A program made the position numbers and the translations under genes. Positions 3,466 through 52,700 of a stretch of DNA of 64,000 nucleotides are shown piece after piece (the first letter of the stretch is position 1; each line of letters starts with the position of its first letter). The notes under the pieces are model-generated. The model saw nothing but the letters and a program-made list of their open reading frames with translations, was not told the origin of the DNA and did not search any database. This DNA comes from a virus (Duplodnaviria > Heunggongvirae > Uroviricota > Caudoviricetes), in IMG/VR virus record IMGVR_UViG_2877948078_000003; one strand, 5' to 3'.

Positions 3466-5556
3466 ATGTATGTCATTGCAAAAGAACTGATTGGCGCGCC
3501 CGGAATGCCTGCTACAACAAAAGGTATTCGCCAGGCATTACAACGTTACGTACAAGGGAAAAGCTGTTGTTCCCGTCGTCGCTCAGGCTCTAAAGCAACT
3601 GAATACAGCATCGACTGTTTACCTGAAGTGACGCAGCAGGCATTACGTGAACGTTATGCCCTGCAACTGATGACGCAAAAAGCCGATGAATCACCGGCTC
3701 CGGTGGTGACAAAGGCCAGACGCTCATCTGACGTGGTTGATGCGGTGGAGGCATATCGCGGATCACCACAACTGATGGTCGAACGCCTCAATGCCCTGAC
3801 TGAAAACCAGCGCCAGGTGGCTGATGCACGAATCGCGATCGTCAGCGAAGTGATGAAAGTCGCGCAACAACCCGGTTTCAGCTGCGCGAAGGCTATCCGG
3901 TTTATCGTTGACAACCTGGCACGTTCACAGCTGGACGAGCGCATTGTGGCAATGGTTGAGACGGCGAACGCCAAAAAGGGAAACAGCCGTGCGTTGAGTG
4001 AAATCACGCTGAAGCGATGGATTGCGGCCTTTAACAAGGCACAGAACGCCGCTGAACGCCTGCTTTTACTGGCACCGGGTAAACGCCAGGAAATAAAAGC
4101 CGAAGATATTAACTGGCTGCCCGAATTTCTGGCGCAGTATCGCCAGTCAAACGGCCGACCAATGACCGAGGCTTACGAGGATTTTGTTGCTGAATGGCAG
4201 CACCGGCACGCTGATGAGCCTTATATGCTCGATATCATGCCCTCTTATGACACCATTCGCCGCGCAATGAAGAAACTGCCGGAAGTGGTGAAACAAAAAG
4301 GCCGGGTGACAGGCAGTGAATACCGTCAGCTTGAGGGATTCACGCGCCGCGACTGGTCCAGAATGCCGGTGAATTATGTCTGGATTGGTGACGGTCACGG
4401 CATGAAGATGAAATGCAGGCACCCGGTTCACGGGCGGCCATTTGCACCGGAAGTGACCTTTGTTATCGACGGTGGCACGCGCTTTGTGGTGGGCTGGAGC
4501 CTTGACCTGGCTGAAAATGTTTTCGCCGTAGCCGGTGCCATACAGCACGGTATTCGCCATCACGGCAAACCGTTTCTGTATTACTCGGATAACGGTTCGG
4601 GGGAAACCGCCGACATCCTGGATAAGGAGGTTGTGGGGATCCTGCCGCGCCTGGGGATTAATCACCCGACAGGGATTGCCGGTAATCCGCAGGGGCGAGG
4701 CATTATCGAACGGCTTAACCGCACATTACCGATGCGCATAGCCCGTAAATACCGCACCTATTTCGGGAAAGGTGCAGATCGCGAGACGTTACGCAAAACC
4801 AACCGCGATTTACGCTCGGCATTCACTGCCCTGCAACAGGACAAACGGCTGAACGCCCGGCAGCAGTCAGCGATGCGTGATTTACCGTCCTGGCCTGAAC
4901 TGATTGATGCCATCCGTGATGGTGTCGAGTGGTACAACAACCGGCCGCACAGCGGATTGCCGGTGAAACCGAACGGTAAGCATTACAGCCCGGCGGAATA
5001 CAGGAAAAAACGCCTGGCAGAAGAGGACACGGAAATTGAATGGCTGTCCGATGTTGAGCTGCGGGATATGTTCCGGCCGATGGTGGAACGCCCGGTAAGA
5101 CGCTGTGAAATACGCTGGCTGAATAATATTTACTACGCGCCCGAGCTGCGTGATGAGCATGGCCGTAAGGTGCTTATCAGCTATGACATTCATGATGCCG
5201 AACGAATTACCGTGCGTCGCCTGGATGGCAGCGTGATTTGCGAGGCGGTATGGGACGGCAATAAACGCGAAGCCTTCCCGGTCAGCGCGGAATACTACAA
5301 ACAGCAGCAACGCCTTAAAGGCATGCGTAAACGCGCAGAGGAAAAAATCCGTGATGCCGAGGATGAGGTGGTCAACGTGCTGGAGCACAAGCCGCAAGAG
5401 CCCTGGCTGGAAAACATCTATCGCCCGGTAGGTAATACGGTGGCCGTTCAGCAACCTGCCGTTGATGATGAGCCTGATGAAGAATACGAGCGTAATTTCC
5501 AGCGGGGATTGCAGTTGCTCGAAGCGAAATTAAAAGAAAATGACCCGCTGGCCTGA
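3466..5556 (+). CDS. A: Mu-type DDE transposase A
   Basis: 696 aa (MuA is ~663 aa); internal DDE-like region (VWIGDGHG ... YYSDNGSGE ... IERLNRTL); position after ner. Confidence 0.9.
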   Translation: MYVIAKELIGAPGMPATTKGIRQALQRYVQGKSCCSRRRSGSKATEYSIDCLPEVTQQALRERYALQLMTQKADESPAPVVTKARRSSDVVDAVEAYRGSPQLMVERLNALTENQRQVADARIAIVSEVMKVAQQPGFSCAKAIRFIVDNLARSQLDERIVAMVETANAKKGNSRALSEITLKRWIAAFNKAQNAAERLLLLAPGKRQEIKAEDINWLPEFLAQYRQSNGRPMTEAYEDFVAEWQHRHADEPYMLDIMPSYDTIRRAMKKLPEVVKQKGRVTGSEYRQLEGFTRRDWSRMPVNYVWIGDGHGMKMKCRHPVHGRPFAPEVTFVIDGGTRFVVGWSLDLAENVFAVAGAIQHGIRHHGKPFLYYSDNGSGETADILDKEVVGILPRLGINHPTGIAGNPQGRGIIERLNRTLPMRIARKYRTYFGKGADRETLRKTNRDLRSAFTALQQDKRLNARQQSAMRDLPSWPELIDAIRDGVEWYNNRPHSGLPVKPNGKHYSPAEYRKKRLAEEDTEIEWLSDVELRDMFRPMVERPVRRCEIRWLNNIYYAPELRDEHGRKVLISYDIHDAERITVRRLDGSVICEAVWDGNKREAFPVSAEYYKQQQRLKGMRKRAEEKIRDAEDEVVNVLEHKPQEPWLENIYRPVGNTVAVQQPAVDDEPDEEYERNFQRGLQLLEAKLKENDPLA

Positions 5557-5627: not shown

Positions 5628-6560
5628 ATGACTGATATTAACGATGTAATCAAGACCATTGATGAACTTATTGATGGCGGCGTACTGACGCAGTATGCCA
5701 TCGCCAGAGAGGCGGGAATTTCCGACGGCACATTATCGGCTTTCCGTAAGGGAAAATATAAAGGCGATAACGCTGCTGTGGCTGCTTCCCTGCGCTCCTG
5801 GTATGAGAACTGGAATAAACAAAGCGCACTGCCGGAACCGCCGCAGTTTGTGGAAACGCAGACAGTCCAGGAGCTGCGCGCACTGTTTCAGGCGGTTCGT
5901 CTGATGGGCTGTATTAACGTTATTGTGGGCGTACCGGGTGTGGGTAAAACGGCCACCGCCCGTAATTACTGCCAGGAGCAACCAAACACCTGGATGATCA
6001 CCCTGTCTCCCGCGCATTCCAGCGTCACGGAGTGTCTGCTGGAGCTGGCCGATGCGCTGGGGATTGATTACACCCGCGCGAACAAAGGGGCATTATCCCG
6101 CGCCATCCGCCGTCGCCTGATGGGAACGCGCGGACTGGTGATTGTGGATGAGGCGGATCATCTTGGTATTGACGGTCTGGAGCAACTCCGGGCAATTCAG
6201 GACGCCACGGGGATCGGGATGGTGCTTATTGGTAACCCGCGCGGACTGTTTAAAGGTGGACGCCGCGCCTTTGATGATTTATCGCGCCTGTTCAGCCGTC
6301 TTGCCCGTACAAAACAACTTCGCAGGGCTAAAAAGGCGGATGTGCTGGCTATTGCCAGGGCATGGGGTATCAGTGGTGAGGCCGAGCTGGCTGTCATGCA
6401 GGCTATTGCTGAAAAACCGGGAGCATTACGTGTTCTGACACATACGCTTAACCAGGCGTGGCTCACAGCCAGCGGTGAAGGCGCGGCGCTGACAGAAAAA
6501 CATATTAATGCGGCCTTTAAAGAGGTTTACACCAACCCTGAATTACTCTCGCAGGTGTGA
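5628..6560 (+). CDS. B: Mu B-type ATPase (transposition target-DNA activator)
   Basis: 310 aa; N-terminal HTH; Walker A GVPGVGKT and Walker B VIVDEADHL; follows A. Confidence 0.85.
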   Translation: MTDINDVIKTIDELIDGGVLTQYAIAREAGISDGTLSAFRKGKYKGDNAAVAASLRSWYENWNKQSALPEPPQFVETQTVQELRALFQAVRLMGCINVIVGVPGVGKTATARNYCQEQPNTWMITLSPAHSSVTECLLELADALGIDYTRANKGALSRAIRRRLMGTRGLVIVDEADHLGIDGLEQLRAIQDATGIGMVLIGNPRGLFKGGRRAFDDLSRLFSRLARTKQLRRAKKADVLAIARAWGISGEAELAVMQAIAEKPGALRVLTHTLNQAWLTASGEGAALTEKHINAAFKEVYTNPELLSQV

Positions 6561-39989: not shown

Positions 39990-40100
39990 ATTGTTGATGA
40001 CTTTTCAATCTATTTGTTGTATCAATTAAACAAATCGAATCGATCGTTTTTGTCGATCGATTGCATGAGAAAGGCATCAACAACAAAGCAGGAGGTTATG
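39990..40100 (+). promoter_or_regulatory. Putative com-mom promoter region with clustered GATC (Dam) sites
   Basis: AT-rich region with GATC-containing repeats (AATCGATCG, GTCGATCGATT) just upstream of com, as in Mu where Dam methylation and C control Pmom. Confidence 0.4.
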
Positions 40101-40105
40101 CGGCC

Positions 40106-40306
40106 ATGTATCGAAACATACGGTGCCGACACTGCAATAAGCTACTGGCACGGGCCAGTTTCAGTTATCTGGAAGTAAAATGTCCGCGCTGTAAAACCCT
40201 CAATCAAATCACATCTCCGAGCGCCACAGAGCACCCCACATACACAAGGAAATCCTGTCGTGGGGAACAGAAAGCAAGTCACATCCCGAATCATCAGCAC
40301 GCCTGA
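40106..40306 (+). CDS. com: Com-like zinc-finger translational activator of mom
   Basis: [31 protein letters not shown] (CxxC ... CxxC) resembles Mu Com; RBS AGGAGG upstream; overlaps the mom start. Confidence 0.7.
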
Positions 40307-40997
40307 ACTTATTCGCTATAACGACAATATCGTTGGTTATGGCTCCCGTGAGTTGCGGGTTGAGACAATAAGTTGCTGGCTGGCCAGACTGGTCATCGTC
40401 AATAAACATTACAGCCACCGTTTCGTAAATAACTCCTACCTTCATCTGGGCATATTTTCAGAACGGGAACTTGTTGGCGTAATGCAATGGGGTTACGCCC
40501 TTAACCCAAACAGTGGTGCACACGTCGTAACGGGTACGCAGAACCGAGAATATATGGAGCTTAACCGGCTATGGCTGCATGACTGTATGCCGAGAAACTC
40601 CGAATCAAGGGCAATCAGTTACGCGCTCAAGCTAATCAGACAGCTTTATCCGCAGGTACAGTGGGTTCAGTCGTTTGCAGATGAGCGTTGTGGCTGTCTT
40701 GGTGTCGTGTATCAGGCAAGCAATTTTGATTATGTAGGCAGCCATGAATCAACATTCTATGAACTTGATGGCGAGTGGTATCACGAGATTTGCAGGAATG
40801 CCATTAAACGAGGCGGACAACGAGGTGAACATCTGAGGGCTAATATCGACAGAGCCAGTGTTCATAAGTTCCGACAGTTTCGTTACATCCGGTTTCTGAA
40901 CAAGAGGGCCAGAAAACGCCTCAACACAAAGCTATTCAAAGTCCAGCCTTACCCAAAACCACAAACTGTTAAAACCGGTTTGAAAGAGATTGGGTGA
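40260..40997 (+). CDS. mom: Mom-like DNA modification protein (anti-restriction adenine modification)
   Basis: 245 aa starting at GTG inside the com 3' end as in Mu; last gene before the right end. Confidence 0.7.
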
Positions 40998-41039
40998 GTG
41001 CTTAAAAACTCATTCTAAAACGCAAAGGAAAAGCGCCGA

Positions 41040-41124
41040 TTTAGTATCAAATAAGTTGCGTATCGGCGTTTTTCAGCGGTATCAAATGAAATGCAAATCG
41101 GTATCAAAAAAATCGCCGCGCTAT
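41040..41124 (+). repeat. Mu-like right end (attR) with inverted candidate transposase-binding motifs
   Basis: AGTATCAAA at 41043-41051, GGTATCAAA at 41078-41086 and 41100-41108: reverse complements of the left-end motifs; terminus reads ...CGCGCTAT rather than the canonical CA. Confidence 0.55.
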
Positions 41125-41129
41125 ACTCC
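41125..41129. repeat. Right copy of the 5-bp target-site duplication ACTCC
   Basis: Identical to 2240-2244. Confidence 0.6.
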
Positions 41130-42631
41130 GCACCCTGTCCGGCTGCATCATGCTCCAGAAACCAGATGTGGTTTTCCGGTTTGTTCAGTTGCAGAGCCTT
41201 ACCTCCCGTAGCCCCCGCATCACTGACCACCGCTTCAGCAATGTTTTTGTTAACACTGTCTCCGCCCGCCGGTTTGTGATAATAGCGCCAGCCCTGTGAT
41301 GCCAGGTCTTCGCCGGATGCCAGCAGACTCATCAGGGTTCGGTTACTGACCGGGGCTTCCGCCTCTCTCTCCGGACCTTCACCGGAAGGTACGGTGGGCT
41401 TCACCATATCAGGCTGTTTTCCGGTAATGAATTCAGCGGTTCTCCCGGCGTGCACCAGAATCGCCGTTGCCAGACGGTCGGAAATAATCCCCCGGCGTGC
41501 CCAGGTGCTGAAATGGCTCGCCCTGTCCTGTGACGTCCAGGTGGCTGAGCTGTCACGCCATTTCGAACCGTAATACCCGATACCCGGAATGTCCGGGTCT
41601 TCTTCCGGTTTGTTCGTCGGCACATTCACCCCGTTCTCATCCGTCATGAACGGTACGAAATGGATATTCTTTTCCGTTTTGTTTTTATAGCTGCCGTACA
41701 CCGTCTGGTACGTGGATTCGTTCTTCTGCTTCCAGAAATACGTCGTGTCCCCGCATATCCAGGGAACACTGCCAGCAGAGCCACTGACGCACTGGCCTGC
41801 CATATCCGCCAGGTCTGCACGGAATTTATCAACCAGCGCACCAAACTGTGCTGCGTGATTTCCGGGCGTGCCGTCAAAATCAAATTCCCCCTGCATCCAC
41901 ACCACGGCAAACAGCACATTTTTCGGGTTCTTCTTCAGTGCTGCTTTTGTTCGACCGATAAGGTCCTTATACAGCGGCTTGTCCACACCCCAGCGCGCTG
42001 AATTCTCCGAGGCACCGCCAGCGTCACTGTATGTGCCATCAGCTCCGGTGGTGAACGCTGAACCACCACGACAGCACGGAACCAGCAGAATACCCGCATT
42101 CGCCGGTATAAACGGCAGCTGTTTTTTGGCGATATGCAGCCCCTGCCCCACGGTACCGTACTGCCCCTTTGACAGGTCCGCTTTCGGATGGTTAAGGCGG
42201 CTCATGTCCTGCACATCATGCAGACAATGGTCCGCCGGAATGATGTCGTTATATTTGCATGCTGCACCGCCCGGTGTCACCGTACTGCGGCGCGCCAGCT
42301 GCTTAATGCGCGGGTCCGGACGGTCATATGTCTCCGGCAGCGGAAGACCTTCACCATACGACATGCCATTTGACTGCCCTGCCAGAACCACAACAAAGTA
42401 ATACTCCGGGTCGCTGGTGGCACTGACAGCCACCACCTTACCCTCATTACCGGTCACCGCCACTGGTGTGGTGACATCACCTTCCGCCGCAATGGCCTGC
42501 ATCAGGGTATAAGGCGTGATGGCCACCGGACTGCCAAATGGCTGCCAGCCCTCCTTCAGTTTTTGTGTCAGTCGTTCAGCAAGGTCTGACGGCGATGCCG
42601 CCCTGACCACATCGTAGTGTTTAAATGCCAT
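41125..42631 (-). pseudogene. nanS-p: 5' (N-terminal) part of the nanS-p-type esterase gene interrupted by the Mu-like prophage
   Basis: Minus-strand translation from ATG 42631 through ...FLEHDAAGQGAE is NanS-like; beyond 41125 the frame reads through Mu-like end sequence to a fortuitous stop at 41015. Confidence 0.8.
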
Positions 42632-42699
42632 GAATCCTCCCGGCCGGGATAATGTTCTGAGTCAGAGAAGGCACGGGCTGACCTCCGGAAACACAAAAG

Positions 42700-42858
42700 T
42701 CACACAGAAAAACAGCCCGCAAAAAAGAAATACGCCCTTACAGTTGCGCAAGGTGATTACTCTAAGGTATTATTAGGGTGCTGAATAAATTACTTCACGT
42801 TTTGTTATTTATTCCTTGCTTCCTTGCCAACCGCTCTTCCCAGGAGCGGTTTTTTTTT
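42700..42858 (+). ncRNA. Candidate small RNA / conserved promoter-terminator module (copy 1)
   Basis: TTGCGC-18 bp-TATTAT promoter-like pair followed ~75 nt later by hairpin CCGCTCTTCCCAGGAGCGG plus T9; a second diverged copy at 45455-45590 keeps the same signals. Confidence 0.3.
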
Positions 42859-42859
42859 A

Positions 42860-43890
42860 CATGTAAAAAGGCTCCTGCGATGAGGAGCCTGGATGTATGC
42901 CTAATCTCTGTATACTGCATGGTGCCGGGTGCCTCCCGGTGAACAAATGTCCGTGATATCAGTCGGCCACACAGGAAATGATACGATATCACCCCTCCGC
43001 ACAGGGGGATTCACCATGCCCGTTTTTTTTAACAAACTCCTCATCAATCAGACAATCATCAACCTCATGAATTGTGAGGAATTTAACATTTCACAACACA
43101 GCCTTTTCCCTGCATAAAAAAGCCCCTCCGGAGAGGGGCTTCGCTACGTGTCTGTTAACCATATGCATGATGCCGGGTGCCTCCCGGTGAGTTCAGTATC
43201 AGCACCTGAACCCGCACAGAAAGGATAGAGTAGAAACACCTGCGCTGATATGCCCCTCCGCTCAGGGGGATTCACCATGCAGAACTTTTTTAACAACTCC
43301 CCGTAAGACAGGCAAGCATCAACCATCTGAACTGTGAGGAATTTAACATTTCACAACACAGCGTTTTTCCTGCATAAAAAAGCCCCTCAGGAGAGGGGCT
43401 GACACTGCGTATCTGTATCATCATGAACATGGTGCCGGGTGCCTCCCGGTGAGTCCAGTCTGGTGTCCCTGAACCCGCGTTTGCATTGCCTACAACAGAA
43501 AAGATGCAAATCACACCAGTCGCCCCTCCGCACAGGGGGATTCACCATGCAGAACTTTTTTAACAACTCCCCCTCAGACAGGCAAGCATCAACCATCTGA
43601 ACTGTGAGGAATTTAACACTTAACAACACAGCCTTTTCCCGCACAAAAAAAGCCCCTCCGGAGAGGGGCCGATCGCTATGTATACACCATAAGCAGCATA
43701 GTGCCGGGTGCCTCCCGGTAGATTCAGCCTGACTACTGAATCTGCGTATTGTGACCATCGCTATGGAGACCATGTCAGACGCCCCTCCGCACAGGGGGAT
43801 TCACTATGCTGGCTCGTTTTTACAAGACTTCCATCGATCAGACAATAGCCCATCAACCGAATTGTGAGTCATTTAACATTTCCATGAGGT
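42860..43890. repeat. Tandem array of four ~250-270-bp non-coding direct repeats with conserved hairpins and a variable core
   Basis: Each unit carries GGTGCCGGGTGCCTCCCGGTGA, CCCCTCCGCACAGGGGGATTCACCATGC, a variable ~40-bp segment, TGTGAGGAATTTAACATTTCACAACACAG and terminator-like AAAAAGCCCCTCCGGAGAGGGGCT; no ORF conserved between units. Confidence 0.7.
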
Positions 43891-44127
43891 AACTGATATC
43901 CAGCTAACAATCATCTACAATGGACGAAGCCAGTTCCAGAACTTGCCCACGGTACAGCAACAACCACTGCATACACATAATTACCACCGGACTCTCTGAA
44001 CCTGCCTACTGGCTAACCCCAGATACAACACCACCAGTCACAAAAGCATCTTATTCTGAAGTACAACTGCCGTGCGGCAGATACTAAAAGCGCCTGTATG
44101 TAACAACATAAATATACAGGATATGTT

Positions 44128-44406
44128 TTATCCACGGGATATAATTTTGATTTCATCAAAACCGTTACTACCTGCAATTCTGTTGTACTCCTGAACAAGA
44201 CTCAGTAACTCCGAATTAGCCGCGGTGAACTCCTCACAGACGTTCCGAAGTGCATCTACATCCAGAAGAACCATCTCCTGACCTGAACGTCGATCAGGGG
44301 TACAAAATAAAACTGTCAGACGACTGAAGACCTTTGTTCGTTCCACATTGACGGCTTCAATACGCTGTAACAGTTGGCTACATCTGATTTTCTCATCAAT
44401 ATTCAC
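44128..44406 (-). CDS. Hypothetical protein (92 aa) downstream of the AraC-family regulator
   Basis: ORF on the cargo strand, AT-rich. Confidence 0.45.
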   Translation of the reverse strand: MNIDEKIRCSQLLQRIEAVNVERTKVFSRLTVLFCTPDRRSGQEMVLLDVDALRNVCEEFTAANSELLSLVQEYNRIAGSNGFDEIKIISRG

Positions 44407-44495
44407 GCAAACACCAAATGATTATAACTTTTTATGCTGAACACATTCAGACTATATCTAATACAGTCAATCAATATATGCCTGATGAAAAAACA

Positions 44496-45221
44496 TCAGA
44501 TAACGTCTGCTTTCTGCAAATATGCATAGCTCTCAGGTGGTGCACCATAATACTGGTGAAATACAGAAATGAAGTAGGACTTACTTGAGTAACCACATTT
44601 TTCCGCTATCGCTTGTCCACACTCTCGCTGGAAACATACAAGATTAACAGCAACACGCATTCGCTCCTCCAGCAACAACCGACTAAAGCTATAACCTTCA
44701 TCCTTAAGTTTTCGCTTCAACAAGCTTTCGCTCATATGCAATTGTAATGCAATCACACCAAGCATCCAGCCTGCCGATATGTCGGTCTGAATTATAGCCC
44801 TTACTTTACAGCTGATATTATTTACAGCACCGGACAAAAATAATGGCAGACGTCTGTCTGTTGCAAATAAGGAGATACATGAAAATGCGGTTATAACAGA
44901 GAAATCCTTCAAAGTATCACTGGATTCACTATGCTGGGTTATTAAAGCCTCCGCCAGTTCCGTATTGTAAATATCAGACATCAAATAAAGAGGCATTTTT
45001 GTCGGTGTATACTCCGTCATTTCACACTCCCTTTCCAGATACTGATTGACGACGCTGTTACTTATATCTGCCATTTTCACTCTGTCGGCATAAGCACAGA
45101 AAAGCCCTCTTATATTTCTGGCAACAAGCATAACACTTCCGGCATCGAGTGAAACTTTTTCTTTTTCAAGAAAAATATCTATCGGATAGCGAATCAGGAC
45201 CACAGAGCAGGCAACATCCAT
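44496..45221 (-). CDS. AraC/XylS-family transcriptional regulator (prophage-encoded, PatE/GadX-like class)
   Basis: 241 aa; C-terminal double HTH of the AraC family (KCGYSSKSYFISVFHQYYGAPPESY); AT-rich. Confidence 0.8.
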   Translation of the reverse strand: MDVACSVVLIRYPIDIFLEKEKVSLDAGSVMLVARNIRGLFCAYADRVKMADISNSVVNQYLERECEMTEYTPTKMPLYLMSDIYNTELAEALITQHSESSDTLKDFSVITAFSCISLFATDRRLPLFLSGAVNNISCKVRAIIQTDISAGWMLGVIALQLHMSESLLKRKLKDEGYSFSRLLLEERMRVAVNLVCFQRECGQAIAEKCGYSSKSYFISVFHQYYGAPPESYAYLQKADVI

Positions 45222-45304
45222 TTTGAATTAACCTGAGCAAAAAGACTTAATACCAGTATATTCCAAAAATGGCATTTTGGGAGATTACTTCTGCAAACCG
45301 CTCC

Positions 45305-45448
45305 CGCTAAATACATCCCTGATTTCCTGCGCAGTCTGTTCAAAACGCCCGGTATCCAGCTCAACGCCAGTTGCACGACGCCCCAGCGCCATCGCTGCTT
45401 TAACTGCCGAACCCTACCCCATGAAGAAATCTGCAACCAGGACACCCG
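45305..45448 (-). pseudogene. 3' remnant of a second N6-adenine methyltransferase gene
   Basis: ~140 bp near-identical to the 3' end of the methyltransferase gene at 46829-46990; homology breaks sharply at 45448/45449 where the promoter-terminator module begins. Confidence 0.55.
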
Positions 45449-45454
45449 GCAGAA

Positions 45455-45590
45455 GGGAGACTACAGCCCGCAATTCGAAAAAGGCCACGCTATTGCGCAG
45501 AGTGATTACTGTCGGGTATTATTCGCCAGTTGAAGTATTACTTCACGTTTTATTGTTTATTCCTTGCCGCCCGCGTCTCCCAGCGCGGGC
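45455..45590 (+). ncRNA. Candidate small RNA / conserved promoter-terminator module (copy 2)
   Basis: Same TTGCGC / TATTAT signals and terminator hairpin GCCCGCGTCTCCCAGCGCGGGC + T7 as copy 1. Confidence 0.3.
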
Positions 45591-45596
45591 TTTTTT

Positions 45597-45860
45597 TGTC
45601 CATAAGAAAGCCCCTCCGGAGAGGGGCTGAAGCCGCATTTCTGTATCACCATGAGCATGGTGCCGGGTGCCTCCCGGTGAGTTCAGCCCGGTGACACCAA
45701 ACCCGCGTATTCTCGCTTACGATCATCAAAGAGATCATACCGTTCACCAGTCGCCCCTCCGCACAGGGGGATTCACCATGCGAAATTTTTTTAACAAATG
45801 CTCAGTCTGACAGGCAACTGTCAACTTACTGAATTGTGAGGGATTTAACACTTCACAGAA
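45597..45860. repeat. Solo fifth copy of the ~260-bp repeat unit
   Basis: Contains all conserved blocks of the array units with its own variable core. Confidence 0.65.
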
Positions 45861-45916
45861 CAATATCTTTCCAGCGCCCCAAAATCATCAGGACAGGAGA
45901 AAATCTTCTCCCCCTG

Positions 45917-46345
45917 TCAGAGTTTAAAATCCAGCACGCCATTTCTAAATGCTTTATATACTCCTGAAGACGGTGGTGATGGTATATCAGCATTCTTTAC
46001 TGCATTCATCGCTTCACGACATAAATCGGGATCACCGCTTTCTCTTTTAACCTGTAGCAGAAGACCATTCGGGGCCATATACATTCTCAGTGAACACTCT
46101 TTTCCTGAATACTTACTCGCATCCTTTAACTGTTCTTCTATGGCTTTCCTGACCTGAATGGCATACTGCCGGATTTCTTCACTGGCATCAGGGGTACGTT
46201 CCGATGAGCTCAAATTTTGCGACTTTATTAATTTATCTGAGTGATACAGAGAAGCATCATGATTATTTGTCGATACATCTTTTGTGCAGCCAGTTGTCAG
46301 ACTGGCTAATATCAAAACAAGAACAGGTACAGCACGGCAATACAT
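45917..46345 (-). CDS. Lipoprotein of unknown function
   Basis: 142 aa; signal peptide with lipobox LTTGC. Confidence 0.6.
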   Translation of the reverse strand: MYCRAVPVLVLILASLTTGCTKDVSTNNHDASLYHSDKLIKSQNLSSSERTPDASEEIRQYAIQVRKAIEEQLKDASKYSGKECSLRMYMAPNGLLLQVKRESGDPDLCREAMNAVKNADIPSPPSSGVYKAFRNGVLDFKL

Positions 46346-46623
46346 TTATCCATCTCCATATTAACAAGAACAATTATCTATAAAATATAGTAAATATGCG
46401 GGATCCGGGAGGACTTGTAACTATCATCTCCGGATCAGCATGTAGTTTTTATTTTTCCGGATGATATATGCCGCAATAATACCCCTGCATACAGATGCCT
46501 GCAAATATCTACGAAGCATCCGGCGAGAATAAACAAGGAAGTCTGAGGCTATCTTATATGATAGCCTGTTGCTCAAAAGACAATGATTCACTCATCAGAA
46601 CCAACAACGCATAATGCAGATAA

Positions 46624-46700
46624 TGGACCGCCATCGAGGACTCGAACCCCGCGCAGCCAGCTTCGAAGGCTGGCGCTCTATCCCGATGAGCTAATGGCGG
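46624..46700 (-). tRNA. tRNA-Arg (anticodon UCG)
   Basis: Cloverleaf folded by hand: acceptor CCGCCAT/ATGGCGG, D stem GCTC/GAGC, anticodon stem CCAGC/GCTGG with loop CTTCGAA, T loop TTCGAGT, encoded CCA. Confidence 0.85.
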
Positions 46701-46709
46701 TATGTGATA

Positions 46710-46785
46710 TGGTGGCCCTTGCTGGATTTGAACCAGCGACCTGGCGATTATGAGTCGCTCGCTCTCACCACTGAGCTAAAGGGCC
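46710..46785 (-). tRNA. tRNA-Ile2 (anticodon CAU, ileX/ileZ-like); tRNA-Met not excluded
   Basis: GGCCCTTTAGCTCAGTGGTGAGAGC...CTCATAA...GGTTCAAATCC...GGGCCACCA closely resembles E. coli ileX as recalled; anticodon loop CTCATAA. Confidence 0.85.
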
Positions 46786-46825
46786 GGGCGCAGGATAATA
46801 ACGGTACGTAACTAATCCTGCAATA

Positions 46826-47884
46826 TCATCCATTCTGACTGACTAAATCCTGTACTTCCCTGACCGTCTGCTCAAAACGTTCAGTCTCCAGCTCAACGCC
46901 AGTTGCACGACGCCCCAGCGCCATCGCGGCTTTGACTGTCGAACCCGACCCCATGAAGAAATCTGCAACCAGGTCCCCCGGACGACTGCTCGCGCTGATT
47001 ATCTGCTGCAGCATTTCTGCCGGTTTTTCGCACGGATGTTTCCCGGGATAGTACTGCACCGGTTTATGCGTCCACACATCCGTGTACGGCACCTGCGCCG
47101 TCACGCCAAAATACCGCCGCAGATGCTTATATTCACTCTGCAGTTCCGCATACTGCCGGTTCAGTGAAGTATACGTCTCCAGCAGCTGGTGGTGGGGCTT
47201 TTCCAGTTCACCGCGCTGATGCTTCTCTTCTGCCACCCGGGCAAACAGCGCCTGTAATTTCAGATAATCACTTTCGTTCGGTAGCTGCCACTGACTGGCA
47301 CTGAACCAGTGCGACACCATGTTTTTCTTTCCTGTGGCATCCACTATCTGTTTTGCCGTTATCCCCAGGGCAGCACGCGCATCACGAAAGTAAGCAATCA
47401 GCGGAGCCATCACATGCTGTTTCAGTGCCCTGCCCTTCGCCTCATACCCGGCATCTTTCGGACGATACGGCCCCTGATAATGTTCCGCGAACAGAATGCG
47501 CTCTGTGGCGGGGAAATACGCCCTCAGGCTTTCCTTGTTGCACCCGTTCCAGCGTCCGGACGGCTTCGCCCAGATAATATGGTTCAGCACACTGAAGCGT
47601 TCACGCATCATGATTTCGATATCAGATGCCAGGCGATGGCCACAGAACAGGTAAAGACTTCCGGCAGGTTTCAGCACCCGCCAGAACTGCGCCAGACACT
47701 GGTCCAGCCATTTCAGGTAATCCTCATCACCCGTCCACTGGTTATCCCAGCCCTCAGGCTTCACTTTAAAGTACGGCGGGTCCGTGACTATCAGGTCAAC
47801 AGAATTTTCGGGTAACGACCGGATAAATTCCAGGCAGTCGGCGTTGATTAACTCACAACTGGATATTTTTACAGTATTAAACAT
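46826..47884 (-). CDS. DNA N6-adenine (or N4-cytosine) methyltransferase, orphan
   Basis: 352 aa; DPPY motif (IVTDPPYF) near the N-terminus and FxGxG (FFMGSGST) near the C-terminus; no adjacent restriction endonuclease. Confidence 0.85.
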   Translation of the reverse strand: MFNTVKISSCELINADCLEFIRSLPENSVDLIVTDPPYFKVKPEGWDNQWTGDEDYLKWLDQCLAQFWRVLKPAGSLYLFCGHRLASDIEIMMRERFSVLNHIIWAKPSGRWNGCNKESLRAYFPATERILFAEHYQGPYRPKDAGYEAKGRALKQHVMAPLIAYFRDARAALGITAKQIVDATGKKNMVSHWFSASQWQLPNESDYLKLQALFARVAEEKHQRGELEKPHHQLLETYTSLNRQYAELQSEYKHLRRYFGVTAQVPYTDVWTHKPVQYYPGKHPCEKPAEMLQQIISASSRPGDLVADFFMGSGSTVKAAMALGRRATGVELETERFEQTVREVQDLVSQNG

Positions 47885-48035
47885 GGATCATTAAGCCTGT
47901 CTCTGATAAGCTCATACCGCTTTTGCGCAAAGCAGATGGGCCTGAGGTTTGCTTGTGACCCCAACGCATGAGCAGATGGCTGGTGAGTGCCCCTAACACC
48001 CACCAGCCGCCCATTTACCACAAATAAAAAAGCCT

Positions 48036-48233
48036 TCAGGACTGAAGGCGTCTGTAACAACCAAACTGATAGTCTGCCAGACCCGCCATAACAAGCTGGG
48101 TCAGTATTAGCTGGCAGCGTTCGCGTGAAAGGTACGTATTCTGTGCAATCTCCCCGACTGTCGCCGGTTCGGTGGCACTTAATTCATTAAAAACTGCTCT
48201 GGCGGTTTCTGTCATATCCTGCTGTTTCAGCAT
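48036..48233 (-). CDS. Small HTH/winged-helix-like protein
   Basis: ~65 aa from the internal Met (ORF extends to 48269); TVGEIAQNTYLSRERCQLILTQLVMAGL resembles a DNA-binding helix pair. Confidence 0.4.
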   Translation of the reverse strand: MLKQQDMTETARAVFNELSATEPATVGEIAQNTYLSRERCQLILTQLVMAGLADYQFGCYRRLQS

Positions 48234-48406
48234 GTCTTTTTCCCTTTTCCGGTTAACGTGACACACCAATAACTCTTGTCAAAAAAGCCAGCAAGCTGAA
48301 AGACCGGTATTAATAACCACCTGCACATTTTATGTACTGCACCATTTTTCTGGCATAAAAAAACCGCTCAATGCCGGGCAGTAAAATCTTTATTACTCAG
48401 GAAATT

Positions 48407-49120
48407 TTAACGTACTCTGACAGTATTAATTTCAAAATCATTAATATTTCCGCTATTAAATATAACGAATTTCTTACCCCCACTCCTGTATGATTTCGAT
48501 AACACCAGACGATCATCATAGCGCGCAATAATGTAATACCATACATTCTCATAGTGGACCGCCTGATATTCCCTCTTAAACTGTGGTTTGTACCAACCGG
48601 CAATAAGAGAGAATGCCCAGAAATAAATCATAAACCCAGCCATCATGAACTCAATTCGGTGATGGCGAATAATAGACATTTCCGAAAAACATTTGACTGA
48701 AACAAGTCTTCTTCCAGACCTGACAAAAAGCGTGATTGCAAAGGCAGCAAGAACGCAGAAAATCAGTACATCTGGCTCAACATGCTGATGAATTACAGAA
48801 AACTCCAGAACAGGTGGAATAAAAAGCAGCAATATCGCGAGAAAAAGCCGGATAAAACTCAAATTTTGTATATTGCGCTTTTGTTTTATGCCCAAAAAGA
48901 AAACAATACCAACTCCCCATCCAATAAGGAATATAACAATAACTGTCACAGCATAAAACAAACTTCGTGCTACATCATCGACACCAGCCCCGACAACCCA
49001 CCATGGAAAGCCATAGTAAAATGAAGTACCCCACCCATAGAAATAAGCGCTCCCCCATCCGAGACAGCCCATATAAGCAACAAAAAGTGAAGAGTTTCTG
49101 AGCAGAGCACTGTCATCCAT
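48407..49120 (-). CDS. Multi-pass integral membrane protein, AT-rich cargo gene directly downstream of Q
   Basis: 237 aa; ~5 predicted TM helices in the N-terminal 160 aa plus a soluble C-terminal ~70 aa; local GC far below the prophage average. Confidence 0.6.
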   Translation of the reverse strand: MDDSALLRNSSLFVAYMGCLGWGSAYFYGWGTSFYYGFPWWVVGAGVDDVARSLFYAVTVIVIFLIGWGVGIVFFLGIKQKRNIQNLSFIRLFLAILLLFIPPVLEFSVIHQHVEPDVLIFCVLAAFAITLFVRSGRRLVSVKCFSEMSIIRHHRIEFMMAGFMIYFWAFSLIAGWYKPQFKREYQAVHYENVWYYIIARYDDRLVLSKSYRSGGKKFVIFNSGNINDFEINTVRVR

Positions 49121-49372
49121 AGTAACACCATTAACAACTCAAAAATATCAACACACATTACATAACAAATTGGATTCCATGCAGTCAAGGGGCGTCATTG
49201 ATGGAGAAAGTATTGGCACAATCGTCATCACGTTTAATGTCTATGCCATTTTTTGGGGGGTAAAAACCCGCTCGGTCACGGGTTTTAGTGGCTTTGCCAT
49301 CACGTATAATAACGGCAAAATATCAGATTTACACGAAATATATGCCTTTTTATCTACTTTTGCAATACTTTG
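49121..49372 (-). promoter_or_regulatory. Putative Q-dependent late promoter region (pR'/tR'-like)
   Basis: Intergenic region immediately downstream of the Q-like gene with hairpin AAAACCCGTGACCGAGCGGGTTTTT on the transcribed strand; by analogy with lambdoid pR'-qut-tR'. Confidence 0.35.
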
Positions 49373-50044
49373 CTATGAAAATGCCGCCTTTTGTTTTGAA
49401 CGTGTTCCCTCCACCAACAATAAAGCTTCACTATCCAGCCGATGAAAAATGTGTTTCATTGCAACCCAGTGACCAGTAAATGTCTTGGACCAGTTTTTGG
49501 TTGTTACTCCCACCAGTAACGCCAGTTCCTGGTATTCGTAACCTTCCCCACCAAAAAGCTCAGCTTTTACCGCCTGCGCCGCCAACCAGATCAACGTCTT
49601 CAGGCGCACCAGAGTTTTTCCTGCAATTTTTCTGGTACCGGATTGAGCATTAAATTCAGTCCACGCCCACTGCGTTATCGCGATCTGATGCTCCCAGCAA
49701 ATGCTACCGCTGTAACACCACAGCAGCCAGGCTTTATGATGTTCTTCAAGAGACAGAACGGCGCGTCGCCATGATGATGTCGAAAACTCAACCGGACTGA
49801 CCAGGGCAATTGATGAGCCTTTCGCCAGTGATTGTTTACCCGGGATCGGGGGATTATCCCGCGTGATCATTTTTCCGGTTACCTCATCGCGGTAACGAAT
49901 TTTTTTGCGTCTGTAACGCCCTGTATCGAACAGGGCATTTTCCTGCCAGACTTCCAGCTGGCCTTTTGTCGACCCACTAAGATCCGCAGTGGCAATCATG
50001 AGTTGCTCACGAACAAACTGTAAATACTGGTTATTCATGCACAC
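49373..50044 (-). CDS. Putative antitermination protein Q (long Q family)
   Basis: 223 aa located directly after rusA as in DLP12/Qin-type prophages; assignment rests mainly on position. Confidence 0.55.
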   Translation of the reverse strand: MCMNNQYLQFVREQLMIATADLSGSTKGQLEVWQENALFDTGRYRRKKIRYRDEVTGKMITRDNPPIPGKQSLAKGSSIALVSPVEFSTSSWRRAVLSLEEHHKAWLLWCYSGSICWEHQIAITQWAWTEFNAQSGTRKIAGKTLVRLKTLIWLAAQAVKAELFGGEGYEYQELALLVGVTTKNWSKTFTGHWVAMKHIFHRLDSEALLLVEGTRSKQKAAFS

Positions 50045-52248: not shown

Positions 52249-52404
52249 TTACTTCTCAGATTCGTAGTCTACGAAGACAGCAACCTCCGTCTGGCCGGTT
52301 CGGATTCGTACCTCGCAGAGGTCTTTCCTCGTTACCAGTGCCGTCACTATGACGGTTAAACAGATGACGATCAGGGCGATTAACATCGCCTTTTGCTGCT
52401 TCAT
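52249..52404 (-). CDS. hok: Hok/Gef-family type I toxin
   Basis: 51 aa MKQQKAMLIALIVICLTVIVTALVTRKDLCEVRIRTGQTEVAVFVDYESEK, near-identical to Hok/Gef toxins as recalled; the frame is also open upstream (70 codons in total). Confidence 0.85.
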   Translation of the reverse strand: MKQQKAMLIALIVICLTVIVTALVTRKDLCEVRIRTGQTEVAVFVDYESEK

Positions 52405-52700
52405 AGCCTGCTTCTCCTTGCCTTTCGGCACGTAAGAGGCTAACCTACGTTTGTGAAGCATAGATTGGGCCTCAGATTAATGTTAAGTGTCCTGCAAGAC
52501 GCGTAATGTTAACTGGGGCTTTTCTCTGTCTGCCTTACGGCGGCATGCCCGAGGCAAACAGCCTCAAGCACCCGCAGCAATTCTACTTAACTCTCCTTTT
52601 CCCGCAAACCGTTTTTATCCCCAGCGGCAAATCGAATACACCACCAGCGCCACCGCCAGTGCGATTCCTACCGTTGTGAATGCTTCAGACCAGGTCATCG
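52405..52700 (-). promoter_or_regulatory. hok mRNA leader region, expected to carry the mok-overlap and sok-like antisense RNA
   Basis: Inferred from the conserved organisation of hok/sok loci; GC-rich structured leader upstream of hok. Confidence 0.35.

Follow-up and report, generated by a model that had tools for sequence, protein, structure and literature searches.

Two alleles of the EcOnc08/21/42-type small RNA gene in a mosaic prophage late region, probably doubled by a single illegitimate crossover

Results and discussion

The 64,000-nucleotide stretch of Caudoviricetes DNA analysed here (IMG/VR record IMGVR_UViG_2877948078_000003; hereafter, the window) carries two plus-strand copies of a promoter-terminator module, located at about 42700-42858 (copy 1) and 45450-45597 (copy 2). 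Both modules are, in our assessment, most probably alleles of the EcOnc08/21/42-type sRNA gene, doubled by a single crossover in the late region. Judged by its sequence, copy 2 is the EcOnc08/21/42 sRNA gene, which is known but uncharacterised, and copy 1 is a diverged allele. The element is of a known kind; EcOnc08/21/42 has already been reported, and current views stand. What the present analysis shows directly is how closely the copies resemble known loci, where they lie, how they terminate and how conserved they are, as well as the junction together with its parental forms.

Anatomy of the two modules

Each copy contains a proximal promoter-like element, read from the sequence, in which a -35 hexamer TTGCGC and a -10 hexamer TATTAT are separated by an 18-nt spacer (plus strand; 42744-42773 in copy 1, with the hexamers at 42744-42749 and 42768-42773, and 45493-45522 in copy 2, with the hexamers at 45493-45498 and 45517-45522). 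The element scores 8 of 12 against the consensus, since TTGCGC agrees with TTGACA at three of six positions, and it was not called in the consensus scan, for which the threshold was 9 of 12. The predicted short sRNAs, a diverged EcOnc08/42 allele with a putative 5' end in copy 1 (42780-42858, plus strand) and an RNA of EcOnc08/42 type in copy 2 (45528-45597, plus strand), each end in a terminator identified by that scan: a hairpin at 42829-42851 followed by T9 to position 42858, and a hairpin at 45569-45590 followed by T7 to position 45597. These two are among 14 terminator-like sites found, compared with 3.7 +/- 2.1 in shuffled sequences. Directly 5' of the terminator, both copies present a CCUUGCC seed (45562-45568 in copy 2), which is duplicated in copy 1 (CCUUGC at 42814-42819 and CCUUGCC at 42822-42828). 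The predicted folds are stable (-20.6 kcal/mol, z -4.8, for copy 1; -20.9 kcal/mol, z -4.65, for copy 2).

The two copies share 69% identity overall (113 of 164 aligned columns) and 94% over a 31-nt core, ATTACTTCACGTTTTRTTRTTTATTCCTTGC. Copy 1 departs from the EcOnc08 type in its terminator stem (AACCGCTC/GAGCGGTT) and its 5' end, and its seed is repeated through a 9-nt duplication. The first-pass annotation of this DNA had described a module that occurs twice, each time next to a repeat unit, with TTGCGC and TATTAT hexamers 18 bp apart and a run of T7-T9 after a GC hairpin. All of these features were recovered, and the module is directly followed by a repeat unit on the minus strand, whose 3' end lies at 42859 (copy 1) and 45598 (copy 2).

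Neighbouring genes

The repeat unit is the STnc100 sRNA gene (RF02076), for which Rfam yields five matches of 119-172 bits over model positions 1-206, compared with a gathering score of 47. Four of these genes stand in tandem on the minus strand (42859-43048, 43110-43308, 43370-43579 and 43643-43838; 119-142 bits), forming an array (42859-43838) convergent with copy 1, and the fifth (45598-45810, minus strand; 172 bits) is convergent with copy 2. STnc100 (EcOnc27/EcOnc05/EcOnc13, related to PasD) is the convergent partner of the module on the opposite strand and distinct from it; here it has been amplified into a four-copy tandem array, all five copies in the window being full-length. The region is highly mosaic, and STnc100 copy number differs among relatives.

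The 5' part of nanS-p, which codes for a sialate esterase of the SASA family and is the gene normally preceded by the module, occupies positions 41125-42631 (minus strand). An AT-rich insertion of 1289 bp (43972-45260, minus strand; 40.7% GC), separate from the junction described below, contains an AraC-family regulator (44496-45221; Pfam HTH_18 and HTH_AraC) and a 92-aa ORF (44128-44406). Both L049 and NZ_CP075697 lack the insertion, and their flanks are clean.

Relationship to EcOnc08/21/42 and the EPEC candidate

Over 108-148 nt, copy 2 matches loci in the E. coli O157 Sakai prophages Sp4 and Sp15, in EPEC E2348/69 PP6 and in Stx phages at 94-96% identity. In Sp4 (L003) and Sp15 (L005) a module of the copy-2 type lies between STnc100 and nanS-p, and in PP6 (L128) the sRNA body is identical. 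EcOnc08, EcOnc21 and EcOnc42 are Hfq-crosslinked RNAs of Sakai, encoded on the strand of the module (Tree 2014, PMC4104026). The CRAC peak EcOnc08 (1179938-1180010, minus strand) corresponds to L003 3939-4011, which extends exactly from the terminator to the -10 hexamer. In the same locus, the probe used for EcOnc08/21/42 in northern blotting falls at L003 4010-4045; the offset of the Sakai CRAC coordinates was verified by means of the EcOnc05 probe. EcOnc21 is a second CRAC peak that covers the part antisense to the UTR (PMC4104026).

In EPEC, the intergenic locus E2348C_1409.E2348C_1408.IGR is a listed sRNA candidate, with EcOnc08/21/42 named as its homologue (Pearl Mizrahi 2021, PMC8550237). 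Its RIL-seq chimeras, which represent proximity ligations, include cfa (767), dppA (197), pcm (118), perA (30), tir (29) and espC (26); the partners are mRNAs or 5' UTRs, with no sRNAs listed, the target motif is GGCAAGG/GGCAGGG, and the chimeras fall in the 3' part that comprises the seed and terminator (PMC8550237). In both copies of the window, the CCUUGCC seed is complementary to the published GGCAAGG motif and the terminator lies on the antisense strand. For Hfq binding, detection of the transcript and the RIL-seq partners we rely on this literature, in which Hfq binding and a detectable transcript are published for the Sakai and E2348/69 loci only (PMC4104026, PMC8550237). The sRNA-gene shape proposed in the first-pass annotation is thereby supported, inasmuch as near-identical loci yield Hfq-bound RNA from the same strand in published CRAC, northern and RIL-seq experiments.

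Like EcOnc08/21/42, copy 2 combines the same strand, the position relative to STnc100 and nanS-p, the terminator and the CCUUGCC seed; unlike it, copy 2 is devoid of the nanS-p side, where EcOnc21 and the long isoform lie. What copy 1 shares with EcOnc08/21/42 is limited to the hexamers of the promoter, the seed and the 31-nt core, and overall identity is about 69%.

Conservation and genomic slot

Of 5426 complete E. coli genomes, 990 (~18%) carry the EcOnc08-type sRNA gene, which is also present in Stx1, Stx2a and Stx2d phages and is never annotated. Rfam contains no family that matches the module, either at E<=1 over positions 40000-50000 or, at the gathering threshold, in the full 64,000 nt; the sole hit was a chance one to rli32 (E=0.96). 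Among 129 occurrences, which represent 40-58 distinct variants, the TTGCGC hexamer is unchanged in 58 of 58 variants and TATTAT in all except one; the seed is invariant, whereas parts of the promoter spacer vary. Conservation of TTGCGCA could also reflect a small hairpin and T-run on the late strand. Four types of terminator stem were distinguished by eye; each folds into a hairpin that leads into a U-tract, and there is a GC-to-AU compensatory change. RNAalifold detected little formal covariation among 19 variants, because the hairpin of the copy-1 type is in a shifted register.

The position of the module is largely fixed. In 110 of the 119 occurrences with sufficient flank (92%), ~165-173 nt separate it from the start codon of nanS-p, and STnc100 comes next after it in 119 of 126. 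Copy 1 shows this arrangement in full, antisense to the late operon and between STnc100 and the nanS-p start; copy 2 retains STnc100 and about 45 nt of the nanS-p UTR, after which the junction is reached.

The junction and the methyltransferase remnant

Attached to copy 2 is a remnant of the nanS-p 5' UTR (45448-45492, plus strand, antisense), recognised in a three-way alignment that includes L090 and in which the UTR homology of the window starts at GGCAGAAGGGAGAC. It is preceded by what is left of the 3' end of a DNA methyltransferase gene (45285-45449, minus strand), recognised by sequence identity and designated a pseudogene by PGAP (NCBI) in the identical genome L001. Along the plus strand, methyltransferase homology stops and nanS-p UTR homology starts at 45448/45449, an illegitimate-recombination junction with GG microhomology. 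The remnant is 97% identical to the 3' end of an intact 356-aa gene in L021 and 83-84% identical to the corresponding part (46839-46983) of the resident intact methyltransferase gene (46826-47884, minus strand), which belongs to the left-hand parent, termed phage A. The fragment reported at first reading is therefore real and does align, but "near-identical" to the resident gene it is not. The sharp break that had been placed at 45448/45449 recurs at the same position in the three-way alignment, and its interpretation as a recombination junction inside a methyltransferase remnant is upheld by the alignment and the parental forms.

The junction occurs with an identical breakpoint in 88 complete genomes, and both unrearranged parental arrangements are found elsewhere, in L090 and L021. 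An intact methyltransferase gene upstream of the AraC gene was not found among the complete E. coli genomes; this arrangement was found in the IMG/VR locus L021. Since both parental arrangements exist, one illegitimate crossover accounts for the junction, with no mobile cassette.

Proposed origin and mode of action

Each module would constitute an sRNA gene antisense to the late operon of the prophage (minus strand here), in the conserved slot between the late-strand STnc100 and nanS-p that holds AsxR/AgvB in other Stx-type phages. The RNA would end at the intrinsic terminator and, as suggested by the homologues, bind Hfq, and its CCUUGCC seed most likely pairs in trans with GGCAAGG-like sites in mRNAs; the proximal TTGCGC/TATTAT promoter, a promoter at the nanS-p start, or both may drive its synthesis. 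The 5' end, the regulatory outcome and the activity of the window's two alleles are in this sense what we infer. The late region of phage A would have comprised Q, methyltransferase, tRNAs, a TolA-like lipoprotein, STnc100, the sRNA and nanS-p, and that of phage B methyltransferase, STnc100, the sRNA and nanS-p. A crossover at the 2-nt GG microhomology, between the nanS-p 5' UTR of A and the interior of the methyltransferase gene of B, would have left two moron cassettes stacked on each other, both ending in a pair of convergent sRNA genes. The sRNA gene would then be present twice because the late regions of the two phages were joined by one illegitimate crossover.

Morons have been described in lambdoid phages downstream of PR' (Juhala et al. 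2000, as cited in PMC4104026). As in the morons described in that citation, AT-rich accessory genes (AraC-family regulator, TolA-like lipoprotein) are found here between Q and the lysis genes and are bounded by terminators; as opposed to them, the window appears to have two cassettes stacked by a traceable illegitimate crossover, each with its own convergent sRNA pair.

Promoter choice, transcript length and alternative interpretations

A distal promoter-like site, ATGCCA-17-GATAAT (42625-42653, plus strand; 9 of 12 in the consensus scan), overlaps the RBS and start codon of nanS-p, which lie on the other strand. An antisense RNA begun there would measure ~199 nt and share the terminator of copy 1. 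The start predicted for the EPEC equivalent of this site is 12 nt from the published coverage-based 5' end at 1444978, and the size of the EPEC homologue was estimated as ~182 nt from RNA-seq coverage (PMC8550237). In Sakai, a northern blot revealed ~271 nt for the EcOnc08/21/42 homologue (PMC4104026); its probe, mapped on L003, sits over the proximal promoter, and therefore at least one transcript begins further upstream. The sRNA may accordingly measure ~70-80 nt (proximal promoter) and/or ~180-270 nt (promoter overlapping the nanS-p start). Copy 2 is without the upstream region and so could be silent if the distal promoter alone works.

These data bear on the proposal that the main product is a long (~180-270 nt) cis-antisense RNA from the nanS-p start codon that in lysogens governs the stability or translation of nanS-p; the short shape would then be incidental or a product of processing. 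The northern and coverage sizes, the EcOnc21 peak over the UTR-antisense part and the 9-of-12 site all favour it, but the RIL-seq chimeras fall in the seed and terminator part with partners in trans, the promoter-to-terminator unit of copy 2 is intact despite loss of the nanS-p overlap, and AsxR, which has the same promoter geometry, possesses a primary 5' end mapped by RACE (PMC4104026). We consider this proposal unlikely as the whole account; it is compatible with a function in trans, and both may hold. A dual-mode RNA, with a long isoform acting in cis on nanS-p and a short TTGCGC/TATTAT isoform acting in trans via CCUUGCC, is a tentative possibility to which we accord somewhat limited weight. 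That the module is simply the nanS-p 5' UTR, or a terminator or insulator element, with no transcript of its own, seems to us the least credible view: it does lie within the nanS-p upstream region, a small late-strand hairpin and T-run cover the -35 hexamer, and back-to-back terminators could shield the morons from the lysis genes, yet the strong terminator is oriented to serve the antisense strand, and near-identical loci give antisense signals in Hfq-CRAC, RIL-seq and a northern blot. The published Hfq-bound transcript on the module strand therefore makes the module more than a nanS-p 5' UTR, the case that the first-pass annotation had named as its own refutation and that these strand-specific data on homologues contradict.

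An anti-sRNA (sponge) that titrates a core-genome sRNA, instead of regulating mRNAs, would align the module with AsxR/AgvB/EcOnc03 (RF02703, RF02702), whose genes fill this slot in the late region of lambdoid phages: they too run antisense to the late operon and converge on STnc100. In AsxR, as in the module, the TTGCGC -35 hexamer is equally far from the nanS-p start and the spacer is 18 nt; both groups bind Hfq (published at homologous loci for the EcOnc08 type) and end in a GCCCG...CGGGC-type terminator. The variable 5' ~17-20 nt followed by a conserved 3' part, and the presence of dppA, a GcvB target, among the RIL-seq partners, point in the same direction. The RNA bodies are unrelated, however, the module giving at least 69 nt compared with 51-60 nt, and the partners of AsxR/AgvB are core sRNAs whereas those published for the module homologue are mRNAs or 5' UTRs. 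The AsxR/AgvB covariance models gave no match at E<=1 in 40000-50000, while the same Rfam search recovered AsxR at 88 bits in Sakai Sp5, and the conserved 3' ~42 nt of AsxR/AgvB (GUAUCUCAUGC..UUGCCCGAACCCAYUCGGGC) is missing from the module. Membership in the AsxR/AgvB family was consequently rejected on the covariance-model result, despite the shared slot and promoter geometry, and a sponge function appears quite improbable. The first-pass annotation had favoured a mobile cassette or recombination hot spot made up of module and repeat, an idea in keeping with two copies in two contexts, the mosaic region and the variable STnc100 copy number. We give it very little credence: no terminal inverted repeats were found flanking the module and there is no transposase, 92% of occurrences share one fixed position relative to nanS-p, nanS-p UTR sequence was carried along with copy 2, and all 88 genomes have one breakpoint, a profile that does not conform to an IS- or MITE-like element and, with both parental forms in existence, leaves that claim unsupported.

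Two other candidates were examined. PasA, PasC and PasD were rejected, as PasD is STnc100-like and PasA and PasC lie downstream of nanS-p. Mimicry of Spot 42 was also rejected; the core shares an 11-mer, UUACUUCACGU, with nt 40-50 of Spot 42 (P ~0.004-0.008 as a single comparison), but this is insignificant given the number of known sRNAs, and the RIL-seq seed lies elsewhere, so that the match is retained solely as a weak lead.

Significance

If the dual-mode reading is true, the window would represent a natural separation of function, in which copy 2, severed from nanS-p, acts in trans only, and copy 1 keeps the cis overlap and has evolved a tandemly repeated seed; in broader terms, the position upstream of nanS-p would form a fixed promoter/terminator frame with swappable sRNA bodies (AsxR, AgvB, EcOnc03, EcOnc08 type). 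To the EcOnc08/21/42 sRNAs, the window adds an allele that has diverged and duplicated its seed, a nanS-p-severed copy that serves as a natural test of promoter use, and a fully traceable case of moron stacking via illegitimate recombination. The published RIL-seq partners of the homologue include cfa and dppA, which are core genes, and the virulence genes tir, perA and espC, and naming the EcOnc08-type sRNA, together with a family model, would improve the annotation of STEC and EPEC prophages.

Gene order in the late region

The modules stand in the late region, expressed from the minus strand, of a lambdoid prophage of the Stx type that has no stx. In order, its genes are Q, a methyltransferase gene (46826-47884), tRNA-Ile2(CAT)/tRNA-Arg, a gene for a TolA-C-domain lipoprotein (45917-46345), STnc100 and module copy 2; these are followed by a methyltransferase remnant, an AraC-family regulator gene (44496-45221), four tandem STnc100 genes, module copy 1 and the sialate esterase gene nanS-p. 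The repeat units described in the first-pass annotation are full-length Rfam STnc100 matches (119-172 bits, threshold 47), and every module is convergent with an STnc100 gene, the terminators standing back to back. The array at 42859-43838 contains four tandem STnc100 copies with a period of 260-270 nt. Relatives have fewer copies at this site, e.g., a single array match in L021, and array size is therefore evolutionarily labile. The 142-aa moron product encoded at 45917-46345 (minus strand) carries a TolA C-terminal domain (Pfam PF06519, 81 bits), and its gene, between the phage tRNAs and STnc100, occupies the position of stx in Stx phages. A sok antitoxin RNA (52399-52573, minus strand; Rfam RF01794, 116 bits) lies in this prophage's early region, and hokD is annotated in the relative.

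Sequence features and distribution of the module

Both copies of the module were found as the first-pass annotation had given them, with two promoter-like hexamers, an 18-nt spacer and a hairpin followed by a T-run, all on the plus strand. In copy 1, the -35 TTGCGC (42744-42749) and -10 TATTAT (42768-42773) precede a hairpin at 42829-42851 and a T9 ending at 42858; in copy 2, the same hexamers (45493-45498 and 45517-45522) precede a hairpin at 45569-45590 and a T7 ending at 45597. The copies share a 31-nt core that is 94% identical and blocks recovered by a repeat finder; global identity is 69% over the extents used in the first-pass annotation. Both hairpins were called as plus-strand intrinsic terminators in a consensus scan, in a region with 14 terminator-like sites versus 3.7 +/- 2.1 in shuffles. 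Since the hexamer pair matches the consensus at only 8/12 positions, below the scan threshold, the promoter call depends on comparative evidence and not on consensus strength. The short RNAs are predicted to fold with a mostly open U-rich region preceding the terminator (z -4.7 to -4.8).

A pattern scan of IMG/VR and fetched loci yielded 129 occurrences, which fall into 40-58 distinct variants according to how much length is compared. No variant departs from TTGCGCA or from the CCTTGC seed, and TATTAT is present in all variants but one; the core was set by the search pattern. Variation is found in parts of the spacer and over the first 17-20 transcribed nt. The terminator stems are of four types (GCCCGCG/CGCGGGC, CCCGCGC/GCGCGGG, GCCCGCAT/ATGCGGGC and AACCGCTC/GAGCGGTT), each forming a perfect hairpin followed by T6-T9. 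RNAalifold picks up a GC-to-AU compensatory pair, while being hampered by the register shift. Of the 119 occurrences with enough flank, 110 have the module at 165-173 nt from the start of nanS-p, and STnc100 is next after it in 119 of 126, counts that are not independent, as many loci are related. Among 5426 complete E. coli genomes, 990 have the copy-2 type, as do 55 phage records (Stx1, Stx2a, Stx2d), and none of these bears an RNA annotation at this position.

On the late (minus) strand, a small hairpin with a T-run (42736-42753 and 45485-45500) overlaps the sRNA -35; its conserved form in Sakai is GCGCAAYWGCGCGGCCTTTTTCG. Placed upstream of nanS-p, this element might weakly terminate or attenuate late-strand transcription, and the conservation of TTGCGCA could be due to it instead.

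Identity with reported prophage sRNAs

The Rfam search of the window returned no family for the module. Tree et al. 2014 (PMC4104026) described "convergent sRNAs" at the moron site of Sakai prophages Sp3, 4, 5, 9, 10, 11, 15 and 17. Sp5 is arranged like the window, with stx2B, STnc100, the antisense anti-sRNA AsxR and then nanS-p; a copy-2-like sequence, 94% identical, fills the same slot in Sp4 and Sp15 (Stx1 phage). The published Hfq-CRAC peaks are EcOnc08 (1179938-1180010, minus strand) and EcOnc21 (1180016-1180101) in Sp4 and EcOnc42 in Sp15 (Table S2, PMC4104026). With the Sakai coordinate frame verified via the EcOnc05 probe, the EcOnc08 peak covers exactly the terminator to the -10 hexamer of the Sp4 homologue. 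The EcOnc08/21/42 northern probe (AATAATATCCGACAGTAATCACTCTGCGCAATAGC) matches positions 4010-4045 of the Sp4 locus (L003) and would detect module-strand RNA; the RNA was given as ~271 nt (Tree et al. 2014, PMC4104026). Later papers describe EcOnc42 as an sRNA 3' of stx1AB. The sRNA body is identical in prophage PP6 of EPEC E2348/69, where Pearl Mizrahi et al. 2021 (PMC8550237) reported the candidate E2348C_1409.E2348C_1408.IGR (minus strand, 1444797-1444978), explicitly called homologous to EcOnc08/21/42. The module was rightly recognized as an sRNA gene, as published Hfq-CRAC, northern and RIL-seq data at homologous loci attest, and this gene has already been reported under provisional names.

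Which promoter sets the 5' end has arguments on both sides. The proximal promoter is favored by the conservation of both hexamers and their 18-nt spacing, and by the CRAC peak boundary at the -10. At the AsxR promoter, where TAP-dependent RACE located the primary 5' end (PMC4104026), the -35 and geometry are identical to those of the module. Against the proximal promoter as the only one are the ~271 nt seen with a northern probe lying over it, and the 182 nt of the EPEC coverage estimate. The scan also detected a distal promoter-like site, ATGCCA-17-GATAAT (42625-42653; 9/12), which overlaps the nanS-p start and would yield an RNA of about 199 nt; the predicted start at its EPEC counterpart is 12 nt off the published estimate. 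The distal region is missing from copy 2.

Presumed seed and partner mRNAs

RIL-seq chimeras of the EPEC homologue involve the cfa 5' UTR (767), dppA 5' UTR (197), pcm (118), perA (30), tir (29) and espC (26), and the partners have the motif GGCAAGG/GGCAGGG in common (PMC8550237). Its complement, CCUUGCC, lies directly 5' of the copy 2 terminator (45562-45568). In copy 1 the seed is doubled (42814-42819 and 42822-42828); here a 9-nt tandem duplication at 42810-42828 (TTCCTTGC|TTCCTTGCC) doubles the presumed seed, and a copy-1-like allele in L049 is without it. In duplexes predicted against the published target snippets, the CCUUGCC segment takes most of the pairings for both window alleles; as these targets are the source of the motif, the result serves only as an illustration.

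A core 11-mer (UUACUUCACGU; window 42790-42800 and 45538-45548, locus L127 239-249) is common with nt 40-50 of E. coli Spot 42, an sRNA reported to affect nanC/nanT. It is distinct from the RIL-seq seed, and the match (P ~0.004-0.008 as a single comparison) is not significant given the number of known sRNAs.

Recombination junction and insertions

The methyltransferase-like fragment beside copy 2 is real; at 83-84% identity it falls short of the near-identity to the resident gene first ascribed to it. In a three-way alignment, the window tracks the intact L021 methyltransferase gene (a 356-aa ORF, 97% identical to the remnant) up to ...CAGGACACCCGG (45449) and matches the L090 nanS-p 5' UTR from GGCAGAAGGGAGAC (45448) onward, with a 2-nt overlap (GG). 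The first-pass annotation was correct in placing a recombination junction here. Both parental arrangements exist: L090 ("phage A") has methyltransferase, tRNAs, TolA-like gene, STnc100, copy-2-type sRNA and nanS-p, and L021 ("phage B") has the intact methyltransferase, AraC insert, one STnc100, copy-1-type sRNA and nanS-p. The window joins the left part of A to the right part of B. Its breakpoint recurs unchanged in 88 complete genomes (79 with >=99% identity), and no terminal inverted repeats were found flanking the cassette. The single shared breakpoint, the parental forms and the lack of inverted repeats therefore indicate that one illegitimate crossover stacked two moron cassettes, which is ordinary lambdoid mosaicism.

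The AraC-regulator segment (43972-45260, 1289 bp, 40.7% GC) is a separate AT-rich moron insertion, with the methyltransferase remnant on one side and the STnc100 array on the other. It contains the gene for the 241-aa regulator of the AraC family and a 92-aa ORF that matches nothing in Pfam, and its boundaries show AT microhomology only. L049 and NZ_CP075697 lack it, with clean flanks, and both keep the junction.

A 38,880-bp insertion (2245-41124) interrupts the nanS-p gene; it is flanked by a 5-bp target-site duplication, ACTCC (2240-2244 and 41125-41129), and has TTTGATAC/GTATCAAA as inverted repeats at its ends. Its left end encodes a transposase resembling MuA (3466-5556) and an ATPase resembling MuB (5628-6560); it is a Mu-like transposable prophage inside the esterase gene of the lambdoid prophage. 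In the relative L001, nanS-p is uninterrupted.

Proposed function

Several less likely readings can be set beside that of a base-pairing sRNA. The module might be a cis-antisense regulator of nanS-p, or a UTR-only element; an Hfq-bound RNA and chimeras with trans partner mRNAs were recorded at its homologues. A role as an anti-sRNA would parallel AsxR, which shares its slot and promoter geometry; the partners reported in EPEC are mRNAs. Together with the repeat, the module might also be a mobile cassette, or mark a hot spot, as first proposed from its two contexts; the junction is evidence for neither, and the cassette has no terminal inverted repeats.

The module RNA is most likely a prophage-encoded sRNA that is expressed in the lysogen and acts by Hfq-dependent base pairing. 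The back-to-back terminators may also close off each moron cassette, and CCUUGCC would pair with GGCAAGG-like sites of core and virulence mRNAs.
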